From a virus (Duplodnaviria; Heunggongvirae; Uroviricota; Caudoviricetes): DNA of 16,389 nt. Location: IMG/VR virus record IMGVR_UViG_3300043466_002831, positions 121,364-137,752 of that record; one strand, 5' to 3'. Positions 11,605 through 11,811 of the stretch are shown piece after piece. Positions within the stretch are counted from its first letter, which is position 1; every line of letters begins with the position of its first letter. A model generated the notes under the pieces. The model was not told the DNA's origin, ran no database searches, and saw nothing but the letters and a program-made list of their open reading frames with translations. The position numbers were made by a program, and so were the translations under genes.

Positions 11605-11633
11605 TTGACTTTTAGTACTATTTATACTATAAT
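11605..11633 (+). promoter_or_regulatory. Promoter of leader 1
   Basis: TTGACT-N17-TATAAT, with TATTTATA at 11619-11626. Confidence 0.55.
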
Positions 11634-11640
11634 TACAACA

Positions 11641-11724
11641 ATGAAAAATTTGAATACACTTTTAGCAACTTTAGCACCGACGAATGGCGGAGGGAGAGAT
11701 TTATGCTCACGTGTTCAGATTTAA
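11641..11724 (+). CDS. Putative attenuator leader peptide 1 (27 aa)
   Basis: MKNLNTLLATLAPTNGGGRDLCSRVQI*; GTGTTCAG (11711-18) is complementary to the terminator 5' arm (11757-64). Confidence 0.75.
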   Translation: MKNLNTLLATLAPTNGGGRDLCSRVQI

Positions 11725-11753
11725 TCAAAGGTAATAAGAAGCCAAAATGATTG

Positions 11754-11788
11754 ACCCTGAACACAAAATGTTCGGGGTTTTTTGTTTT
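11754..11788 (+). terminator. Attenuator terminator 1
   Basis: ACCCTGAACA-CAAAA-TGTTCGGGGT followed by a T tract. Confidence 0.9.
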
Positions 11789-11811
11789 ATATGAGTTTTT
11801 TATTATCTTTG
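11781..11811 (+). promoter_or_regulatory. Bacteroidota-type promoter upstream of tRNA-Pro
   Basis: TTTG-N19-TATCTTTG. Confidence 0.8.

Follow-up and report, generated by a model that had tools for sequence, protein, structure and literature searches.

A probable leader-peptide attenuator with a many-codon sensor ahead of a block of phage tRNA genes

In the thr (Thr, Ile) and ilvGMEDA (Ile, Leu, Val) leaders, a short translated ORF has codons for several amino acids, the alternative helices 1:2, 2:3 and 3:4 end in an intrinsic terminator, and a ribosome stalled in the ORF selects the antiterminator. This helix logic is established, and trpL, hisL, leuL and pheL follow the same one. Equally established is the attenuation of pheST by the pheM leader, which acts on the translation machinery and not on a biosynthetic enzyme. 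To our knowledge, all described leader-peptide attenuators regulate proteins of amino-acid biosynthesis or aminoacylation. Bacterial tRNA genes are controlled at the promoter level, via growth-rate and stringent control, and we know of no described case in which the ribosome feeds the tRNA supply back to tRNA transcription. The initial annotation of the DNA studied here knew of no leader-peptide attenuator described for tRNA genes, and we found no published account of such control in the literature searched.

The window (the whole stretch of DNA that was analysed, 16,389 nucleotides) carries an element that is probably a ribosome-mediated, leader-peptide transcription attenuator. It would gate the read-through by which transcripts from its own promoter reach a ten-gene tRNA block, with a panel of codons as the sensor. 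All features given below are on the plus strand. A promoter, a 27-residue ORF, an 8-bp antiterminator and a terminator ahead of ten tRNA genes had been annotated initially; all were found, and their coordinates were checked on the sequence. The leader promoter P_L1 (11604–11635) consisted of TTTG/TTGACT (11604–11610), a spacer, and TATAAT(TA) (11628–11635). It was an 11/12 match of the sigma-70 type (TTGACT at 11605–11610, 17-nt spacer, TATAAT at 11628–11633) with the top score in the region 10500–16389, and it was also readable as a Bacteroidota-type pair of −33 TTTG and a −7 box resembling TAnnTTTG. The TTGAC box was unchanged across four close relatives and retained in distant ones. The pattern TTGAC-N16-18-TAnnnT showed no clear enrichment in the genome (39 vs 27), which leaves recognition of P_L by a phage sigma factor unsupported.

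The leader ORF 1 (11641–11724, ATG at 11641–11643, TAA at 11722–11724) had 27 codons and no Shine–Dalgarno sequence. Its ATG was located ~8 nt past the second promoter hexamer, and the mRNA would be nearly leaderless. Codons 2–20 formed the panel (11644–11700) and encoded solely K, N, L, T, A, P, G, R and D. The initial annotation had compared this amino-acid set with ten listed tRNAs, and ARAGORN returned exactly those ten, at 11844–15156: Pro, Asn, Gly(gcc), Gly(tcc), Asp, Thr, Ala, Leu(taa), Arg(tct) and Leu(tag), which were also seen with Rfam. With wobble pairing allowed for, the panel offered a cognate codon to all ten anticodons, those of the two Gly and two Leu isoacceptors and of Arg-TCT among them. 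The GC-ending codons, said earlier to look uncommon, were indeed rare in the genome by relative synonymous use (CCG 0.06, ACG 0.07, GGC 0.03, GGG 0.10), and the overall codon rarity was modest (p 0.04 for leader 1, p 0.004 for leader 2). In the window alone, the two leader peptides separated the amino acids of the group-1 tRNAs from all others with a Fisher p of 1.3e-5; the chance of finding all eight group-1 amino acids among 19 random residues was 0.017.

The block also contained three embedded protein genes (HNH, DUF6915 and DUF6878, assigned with Pfam and PHROGs), which are of other kinds than amino-acid biosynthesis or aminoacylation proteins. Since the regulated genes are tRNAs, the unit stands outside every described leader family, as a variant of leader-peptide attenuation. 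The thr and ilvGMEDA leaders have tandem runs of two to three codon kinds and control biosynthetic enzymes, whereas the phage panels have 8–15 codon kinds, mostly one to three of each, ahead of the tRNAs that read them. The pheM leader, for its part, controls a protein, an aminoacyl-tRNA synthetase, and responds to one amino acid, with neither a codon panel nor tRNA genes. Likewise, the phage unit differs from trpL, hisL, leuL and pheL in regulating tRNAs and in that helix 1:2 encloses the entire sensor, so that a stall at any codon in the loop should count. A resemblance to leuL was found in four related loci (L025, L031, L060 and L071), where a Leu/Arg-rich leader precedes Leu-Arg-Leu tRNAs. 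In the leader 1 panel, one to five codons per tRNA were scattered with no tandem run; the sensitivity to a mild tRNA shortage should therefore be low compared with trpL or hisL.

The helices of the unit were arranged as in a classical attenuator. Region 1 (11646–11657, codons 2–6) was the 5′ half of helix 1:2, by which the whole sensor is closed. Region 2 (11711–11722), with the core GTGTTCAG at 11711–11718, could take either region 1 or region 3 as its partner. Regions 3 and 4 formed the intrinsic terminator (11753–11785), whose stem (11753–11779) had 11 pairs, five of them G–C, and a 5-nt loop, and was followed by the T-run. Region 3 was CTGAACAC at 11757–11764, perfectly complementary over 8 bp to the core of region 2, which gives the antiterminator 2:3. 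Moreover, the MFE fold contained a 12-bp helix between 11646–11657 and 11711–11722; this helix 1:2, absent from the initial annotation, is the third helix of a classical attenuator.

We infer translation of the leader ORF, stalling on it, the sign of the response and its physiological trigger. Transcription would start at ~11640 and give an mRNA with almost no 5′ leader. With no ribosome on it, or after a ribosome has run through, region 1 (codons 2–6) would pair with region 2 (codons 24–27), the terminator 3:4 would form, and transcription would end at ~11785. If a tRNA of the block were scarce or uncharged, a ribosome would stall somewhere in the loop closed by helix 1:2, and that helix would not form. 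Region 2 would then pair with region 3 and pre-empt the terminator, and the polymerase would continue through a boxA-like element into the tRNA genes. The new tRNAs would speed up translation of the leader and shut the switch, a negative feedback for each tRNA block. The phage thus probably raises the output of the block when ribosomes read the panel codons slowly. On the evidence of the sequence, the attenuator interpretation of the initial annotation is supported, and the trigger that it named, starvation or anticodon-nuclease attack, is speculation.

The comparison set consisted of 80 related tRNA arrays from uncultured phages of ~320 kb, which probably belong to the Bacteroidota phages. 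The source phage itself is a giant phage from lake water. The GenBank phage collection held no close or cultured relative; DNA matches there were to tRNA parts only, and identities for the DUF6915 neighbour did not exceed 54%, with matches in phages of Bacillus and Streptomyces. Scanning for the exact promoter-plus-ATG pattern gave no match. The leader ORF was free of indels in the four close relatives, and across the 80 loci more than 60 distinct sequences, belonging to four leader types, retained it, with frames of 22–40 codons. In family 1, the 27 distinct sequences had no frame-breaking indels and an invariant ATG. As predicted initially, the ORF was thus conserved in related phages: the ORF and its ATG stayed, and the peptide sequence drifted.

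The agreement between leader codons and downstream tRNAs was counted on 64 non-redundant complete units. A cognate codon was present in leader codons 2–22 for 549 of 600 downstream tRNA genes (92%), against 53% on average and 67% at most in shuffled groups, which bears out the overlap proposed for the window. Conversely, 80% of codons 5–22 were readable by the leader's own block, compared with 39% in shuffles. Within the same genome, the leader amino acids were found in their own block at 0.68 and in another block at 0.23. The head codons of the family 2 leaders (Arg/Lys, Thr, Thr) were those of the other block.

That the codon set would follow the tRNA content had also been proposed, and it did so through tRNA loss, gain and moves between blocks. 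In L062, which has Asn and Gly tRNAs after leader 2, N and G have appeared in the leader 2 peptide, and V and F have disappeared. The Trp, Lys and Gly tRNAs are missing from L093, whose peptide has C in place of W, N in place of K, and S or P in place of G. In L034, tRNA-Pro has moved behind a third leader with three Pro codons, and leader 1 has lost Pro; L025 has a separate Leu/Arg-rich leader before Leu-Gln-Arg-Leu. On phylogenetically independent pairs, taken on a tree built from a neighbouring gene, codons in family 2 changed in the same way as the tRNAs in 20.3 pairs and in the opposite way in 0.1 (p 2e-6). The corresponding values in family 1 were 5.8 and 0.2, where the support within the family was weak (tree test p 0.03, shuffle test borderline). 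The synonymous box also followed the anticodon of the downstream isoacceptor, both for Ser AGY vs TCN (p 3e-5) and for Arg AGR vs CGN (p 1e-6); the ATA codon showed no significant association with tRNA-Ile(tat) among the related loci. We must also note that the tracking is loose: the codon was unchanged after a tRNA change in ~47 of 67 independent pairs, and the L026–L028 lineage retains Leu and Thr codons (in L027 and L028 Asn codons too), with no such tRNA detected by ARAGORN after leader 1. The ORFs ahead of Ile(tat)/Ser(gct) tRNAs in L018, L020, L033, L031 and others were rejected as leaders: a longer protein gene with an ordinary terminator behind it accounts for them, as its frames or C-termini.

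The covariation of the antiterminator, likewise anticipated, was observed across 33 distinct pairs of regions 2 and 3. Because region 2 of family 1 was misaligned by MAFFT, the helices were anchored by motif with a script. The six core pairs of helix 2:3 were formed in 33 of 33 distinct cases. One position alternated between A-U (19), G-C (13) and G-U (1), and another, found as U-A, A-U, G-C or G-U, was paired in 26 of 33 cases vs 16.7 in shuffles. Compensatory changes thus occurred at two to three positions, and none of 5000 shuffles did as well. The terminator stem was kept in all relatives, and in close relatives a G-to-A change in its 3′ arm converts a U-G pair to U-A. Helix 1:2 was predicted in nearly all leaders when the nascent RNA was folded, from region 2 and codons 2–6. 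Within each family, own partners were more stable than swapped ones (−9.2 vs −7.7 and −10.2 vs −8.7 kcal/mol), with 0 of 5000 swaps as good; this evidence is statistical and weaker than that for helix 2:3. RNAalifold on family 2 alone recovered just the terminator and, inside, a CAACAA/UUGUUG hairpin; double changes were absent. In family 2, regions 2 and 3 hardly vary, and the helix covariation sits between the families and in the L068 type.

The interval between the terminator and the first tRNA contained a second promoter, P2 (11781–11811), composed of TTTG (11781–11784), a 19-nt spacer, and TATCTTTG (11804–11811); its −33 box lies inside the terminator T-run. P2 was a full match to the bipartite motif, which occurred 37 times in the contig vs 4.9 in shuffles (~7-fold enriched), and the −7 box of P_L1 matched this motif less well. 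A TAnnTTTG box was found in 46 of 54 distinct terminator-to-tRNA intervals and was absent where the interval was 9–16 nt. As P2 sits between the terminator and tRNA-Pro, the tRNAs of the window can be made without read-through. One may accordingly picture a switch that is real but marginal: the unit would mainly end transcription from upstream genes and from P_L, P2 would drive the tRNAs, and the codon match would tune a small extra. We consider this account improbable. The panels have stayed matched to their tRNA sets through many independent changes, which is hard to square with a negligible share of the output. Furthermore, in five lineages (L025, L039, L063, L074 and L051) the first tRNA begins 9–16 nt past the terminator, leaving no room for P2, so that only read-through can express it. 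An objection to the attenuator, that all tRNA transcription might come from internal TAnnTTTG promoters, therefore fails in those five lineages. In the window, the promoter at 11781–11811 has the full consensus. Here, this host-type promoter would probably supply a basal tRNA level, to which the attenuator would add, and the attenuator is probably not the sole source.

The boxA-like motif GTGTTCTTTGAC (11814–11825) was located ahead of the first tRNA. Its core TTCTTTGA recurred after leader 2 at 15574–15581 and in 32 of 54 distinct intervals, lying after the −7 box in 14 and before it in 15. Having such a motif (GTTCTTTGA) ahead of each tRNA block recalls the rrn-type boxA antitermination leaders of rRNA and tRNA operons, whose boxA RNA is bound by NusB/NusE. 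Nevertheless, this is a resemblance of motif only, and in about half of the relatives that have both elements the motif is upstream of the −7 box.

A translation-dependent sensor could also have another output. Fluent translation might lead to read-through, as a positive feedback, or stalling might act after transcription, on precursor processing or decay. In many relatives, the stop codon follows the start of region 2 at a distance of 23–32 nt, so that region 2 would be at the trailing edge of a terminating ribosome, uncovered, and classical masking is not directly applicable. However, regions 1 and 3 are mutually exclusive partners of region 2, and with region 1 placed where the ORF begins, region 2 becomes free for region 3 only when a ribosome is held between regions 1 and 2. 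The position of the codon match points the same way. It was 0.77–0.83 from codon 5 up to region 2 and 0.38–0.46 in the tail, where codons lie within region 2 or beyond it; in family 1, downstream tRNAs could read 83% of the codons in the former stretch and 46% of those in the tail. The tail codons, on which a stalled ribosome would cover region 2, are thus unmatched to the tRNAs, as predicted if stalling means read-through, and we regard a different output as very unlikely. Least credible of all is an independent small gene for a stable small RNA or a 27-residue peptide that does not control the array: it would fit the unit's own promoter, strong terminator and ~145-nt product, and other conserved non-coding RNAs appear to be in the same array, but the codon set is conserved and the peptide is not, this set tracks the tRNAs behind it even in the choice of synonymous box, the antiterminator and the terminator arm change in concert, Rfam gave no match, and a free-standing RNA or peptide would account for neither the codon tracking nor the helix covariation.

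Two further classes of leader resemble the proposed attenuator in part. T-box riboswitches also tie the choice between terminator and antiterminator to the state of a particular tRNA, but they bind the uncharged tRNA directly, with no ribosome, and have a conserved T-box sequence. The phage leader had no T-box match in Rfam at E up to 1, and its ORF is conserved as an ORF. At the gathering threshold and at E up to 1, Rfam returned only tRNAs and chance matches, with no known leader. In ermC-type leader peptides, a short ORF likewise reports ribosome progress and not one metabolite. They differ in responding to drug-bound ribosomes at a defined peptide, mostly by way of translation initiation, with no matching of codons to genes.

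The window contained a second unit of the same design (15298–15511), which forms the end of the block governed by leader 1. It comprised a promoter (TTTG at 15298, TATACTTC at 15322–15329), a leader ORF of 33 codons (15347–15448), region 2 with AGTTCGG (15425–15431), and a terminator (15473–15505). These were followed by TATCTTTG at 15543–15550, the boxA-like motif at 15571–15582, and tRNA-Val at 15600. In a close relative (G002), the codons of leader 2 cover all 15 downstream tRNAs.

Metatranscriptome data were available as contigs, in which other organisms contribute to the depth over the tRNAs. Contigs from two studies, at a depth of ~3, covered 11646–11823 and 11655–11830 and crossed the terminator, a kind of evidence that cannot show starts, ends, strand or ribosome occupancy, or distinguish RNA from DNA. 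Another contig spanned 11458–11672.

Why large phages carry tRNAs is debated, the views being codon-usage matching, replacement of degraded host tRNAs, and evasion of tRNA-cutting defences. If the attenuator works as proposed, a sensor that responds when particular tRNAs are depleted would speak for replacement or defence. On a broader proposal we are evenly divided: each tRNA block of large phages may be a self-tuning loop, in which a translated codon panel gauges how well the block's own tRNAs are supplied and opens a terminator if one becomes scarce, for example through host tRNA decay or an anticodon nuclease. The switch would represent a new use of attenuation, with the tRNA product feeding back on its own gene through decoding speed, and a new sensor design, with a many-codon panel in one loop instead of a run of one codon. 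Because panel and tRNA set co-evolve, other phages can be screened for such switches by computation alone. On the broader proposal, tRNA genes would be under direct product feedback through the ribosome, and phages would carry a built-in sensor of tRNA-targeting defences.

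The window comes from an IMG/VR virus contig of 137.7 kb (33% G+C; estimated completeness about 47%), of which it forms the final 16.4 kb. A check of the sequence placed the promoter, ORF, terminator and antiterminator of leader 1 where the initial annotation had put them. The promoter consists of TTGACT (11605-11610), a 17-nt spacer and TATAAT (11628-11633); it matches at 11 of 12 positions and scored highest in the scanned range 10500-16389. The 27-codon ORF runs from the ATG at 11641 to the TAA at 11722-11724, and the terminator stem (11753-11779) has 11 pairs and is followed by a T-run. 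The antiterminator strand GTGTTCAG (11711-11718) shows 8-bp complementarity to CTGAACAC (11757-11764). The ten tRNA genes listed behind the leader (group 1) were all recovered by ARAGORN and Rfam, from 11844 to 15156. A second unit of the same build (15298-15511) precedes the genes for tRNA Val, Glu and Phe, at which the contig ends. Moreover, the minimum-energy fold contained a 12-bp pairing, overlooked in the annotation, between codons 2-6 (region 1, 11646-11657) and the antiterminator strand (region 2, 11711-11722), which places the entire codon panel inside the loop of the 1:2 helix.

We also observed that tRNA-Asn (11926-12010) is 85 nt long, compared to 73 nt in close relatives, with ~12 extra nt in the variable region. 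The protein genes of this part of the window (10636-11073, 12058-12594 and 13662-14740) include one for a PF20274 cyclic-phosphate-processing receiver-domain protein immediately upstream of the array, and an HNH homing endonuclease gene is inserted between tRNA-Asn and tRNA-Gly. Both travel with the tRNA array, as does a DUF6915/DUF6878 gene pair; DUF6915 is also found in tRNA-rich Bacillus Tsamsa-like and Streptomyces phages.

Within the window, the proposed match between leader 1 and its tRNAs held at the level of wobble rules, with a cognate codon among codons 2-20 for 10 of 10 group-1 anticodons. With amino-acid frequencies from the long ORFs of this genome, the split of the two leader peptides between group-1 amino acids and the others gave a Fisher p of 1.3e-5. 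Nineteen random residues would contain the complete set of 8 group-1 amino acids with a probability of 0.017, and 25 random residues would contain the 12 amino acids of the later tRNAs, Met excluded, with a probability of 0.0005. The GC-ending codons were indeed uncommon (CCG 0.06, ACG 0.07, GGC 0.03, CGC 0.01 and AGC 0.02), with a modest overall codon rarity of the leaders (p = 0.04 and 0.004).

Close relatives were reached through the 97-residue gene upstream of the leader. Three contigs were 89-93% identical over the leader and kept the 27-codon frame without indels; one terminator change among them converted a U-G pair to U-A. One of the three, G002, carries a complete array, whose 25 tRNAs serve all 20 amino acids, and its leader 2 has a cognate codon for all 15 tRNAs behind it, including both Ser isoacceptors, Arg-ACG and, via an ATA codon, Ile-TAT. 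Since these tRNAs were invisible to the initial annotation, the match in G002 amounts to an outside check. In G001, the Phe and His tRNAs flank a tRNA-like gene (L018:13286) for which ARAGORN reported an anticodon of two bases.

The wider set comprised 80 loci, the best 80 of 534 matches to the DUF6915 gene inside the array, several of them from complete genomes of about 320 kb. Homologues of both leaders at 68-79% DNA identity had intact ORFs and altered peptides. Across the relatives, the ORF was conserved, the codon set followed the tRNA content and the antiterminator covaried, which supports the attenuator interpretation of the initial annotation. Leaders were found by scanning for a terminator and then a tRNA, and the ORFs next by family patterns, chosen by homology and blind to tRNA content. 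We excluded frames belonging to a longer protein gene, loci ending within 1.5 kb of the last tRNA, and two pattern matches in L024 that proved false. Four leader types emerged: family 1, before the Pro-Asn-Gly-Asp-Thr type of block; family 2, before the Val/Glu-Phe-...-Ser type; a Leu/Arg-rich 22-codon leader found in four lineages (L025:11100-11232, L031:3015-3147, L060:5051-5186 and L071:1258-1393); and the third leader of L034, before Pro-Ile-Cys-Trp-Tyr-Gln-Arg-Met-Ser. In the Leu/Arg-rich leader, 8-9 codons are for Leu and 4-5 are AGA codons for Arg. It comes with a terminator and an antiterminator of its own (GTTCAG/CTGAAC) and directly precedes Leu(taa)-(Gln)-Arg(tct)-Leu(tag) tRNAs. 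The 3′ tails of the leaders, from region 2 to the stop codon, had sequence in common between different families and genomes (e.g., L025, L056, L060 and L076), with peptide endings such as SSDVIVG, SSEASGW and DTDVG, suggesting that units exchange the switch part or that it evolves in concert among them.

The overlap of codons and tRNAs was evaluated in 64 non-redundant complete units by shuffling tRNA groups among units 2000 times. A cognate codon was present in leader codons 2-22 for 549 of 600 downstream tRNA genes (92%; shuffled mean 53%, maximum 67%), and 80% of codons 5-22 were readable by the unit's own block, compared to 39% in shuffles. The corresponding values for family 2 alone were 94% versus 81% (maximum 86%) and 78% versus 66% (maximum 72%), and family 1 alone showed a small gain (87% versus 84% for tRNA genes, 84% versus 80% for codons). 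In genomes with several units, the fraction of leader amino acids found in the own block was 0.68 versus 0.23 in another block. Relatedness was handled with a tree from 1.1 kb of neighbouring genes and phylogenetically independent pairs. Among family 2 pairs differing in a given downstream tRNA, the codon difference agreed with that in the tRNA in 20.3 pairs, ran counter to it in 0.1 and was absent in 46.6 (sign test p = 2e-6); the family 1 values were 5.8, 0.2 and 20.1 (p = 0.03). Pairs of different amino acids share the tree and are not fully independent, although each is a separate substitution. Individual loci illustrate these changes. L062 has Asn and Gly tRNAs behind leader 2, and its peptide codons 5-23 specify exactly the 11 amino acids of its 12 tRNAs. 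L093, lacking Trp, Lys and Gly tRNAs, replaced W by C, K by N and G by S or P, and in L065, lacking Val, Lys and Arg tRNAs, V became S, K became H and R became Q relative to L051. Both Glu codons were lost in L063, which has no tRNA-Glu. In L034, Pro has disappeared from leader 1; tRNA-Pro there follows the third leader, in which three codons are for Pro.

The choice of synonymous box in the leaders also tracked the anticodon of the downstream isoacceptor. In codons 2-22, units with only Ser-GCT downstream had 27 AGY and 1 TCN codons, and those with only a UGA-type Ser tRNA had 2 and 7 (Fisher p = 3e-5). AGR and CGN codons numbered 35 and 2 with only Arg-UCU downstream, and 11 and 18 with only CGN-reading Arg tRNAs (p = 1e-6). 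GGR codons occurred solely where Gly-UCC was downstream (p = 2e-12). Such tracking is expected of a decoding sensor; a function of the peptide itself would be indifferent to the box. The match also varied along the ORF: it was 0.77-0.83 between codon 5 and region 2, and the tail, which overlaps or follows region 2 and in which a stalled ribosome would cover that region, scored 0.38-0.46.

The pairing of region 2 with region 3 (the terminator 5′ arm), anchored on TTCRG and CYGAA cores, retained six core pairs in 33 of 33 distinct combinations. One position switches between A-U (19), G-C (13) and G-U (1), and in one pair A-U replaces G-C. The seventh pair (U-A, A-U, G-C or G-U) was formed in 26 of 33, compared to 16.7 in shuffles (0/5000 as good), and in the L068 type this helix takes a different form, of 12 bp. 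When the nascent RNA was folded up to region 3, almost every leader, whatever its type, paired region 2 with codons 2-6, and the own region 1/region 2 duplex was more stable than those with partners swapped within a family (0/5000 swaps as good in each family). Relative to the start of region 2, the stop codon is found anywhere between 4 nt upstream and 32 nt downstream; thus, a terminating ribosome does not always cover region 2. Judging from this geometry, a ribosome held between regions 1 and 2 would keep helix 1:2 open and leave region 2 free for region 3; once the ribosome has passed, helix 1:2 would re-form and the terminator would then form; a leader free of ribosomes would have the same outcome. 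This three-state model fits all leader types. Family 2 leaders also have a conserved inner hairpin, CAACAA/TTGTTG (TTTGT in the window lineage; 15377-15409), which explains the invariant Gln-Gln...Cys-Trp peptide motif at the RNA level and may serve for pausing or timing.

Bacteroidota promoters typically carry the bipartite motif TTTG-N18-21-TAnnTTTG, which occurred 37 times in the contig, compared to 4.9 in shuffles. The leader promoters fit it, perfectly in several relatives (e.g., L025, L055 and L088), and the predicted transcription start precedes the ATG by about 0-4 nt in family 1 and by about 11-13 nt in leader 2. A perfect copy, P2 (11781-11811), follows the leader 1 terminator, with its -33 box within the T-run, meaning that the tRNAs of the window can be made without read-through; after leader 2, we found the -7 box alone (TATCTTTG, 15543-15550). 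The alternative that all tRNA transcription comes from such internal promoters fails in five non-redundant lineages (L025, L039, L063, L074 and L051), where the first tRNA begins 9-16 nt after the terminator stem, leaving no room for a promoter and read-through as the sole route. In the window, P2 probably provides a basal level, to which the attenuator would add. A boxA-like motif, TTCTTTGA, was present in 32 of 54 distinct terminator-to-tRNA intervals, and GTGTTCTTTGAC lies ahead of each tRNA block of the window (11814-11825 and 15571-15582). The order of the boxA-like motif and the -7 box is variable; among relatives having both, the motif follows the terminator and precedes the -7 box in about half, and would therefore be carried by read-through transcripts only.

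The RNA runs covered small shares of the stretch, as contigs only; low-depth contigs covered the leader and crossed the terminator, and these show neither ends nor RNA origin. Two ORF-free stretches of the array (12754-13124 and 15752-16051; G+C 0.43 and 0.39, compared to 0.33 for the genome) were conserved in 27-28 of 81 related loci and appeared as high-depth contigs in four metatranscriptomes (depth about 50-340 versus 2-7 on protein genes). At 15761 there is a complete TTTG-N20-TATCTTTG promoter. Neither stretch matched Rfam, and both are candidate structured RNAs.

The observation made in the initial annotation is confirmed, and the comparative sequence evidence makes it quite probable that the unit is an attenuator that depends on the ribosome and supplies the tRNA block by read-through. 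A T-box identity was ruled out, as the Rfam search gave no T-box match to the leader unit. Full-text literature searches and a paper on genome-wide attenuators brought up no description of tRNA genes controlled by a leader peptide. The unit follows the helix logic of leader-peptide attenuators, the closest being the multivalent thr and ilv leaders, and the Leu/Arg-rich leader of the relatives closely resembles leuL. Unlike in the known leaders, the controlled genes are tRNA genes, and helix 1:2 encloses a sensor panel of up to 15 codon kinds. The phage leader would be a known kind of switch, leader-peptide attenuation, in a new form with tRNA targets and a multi-codon panel.
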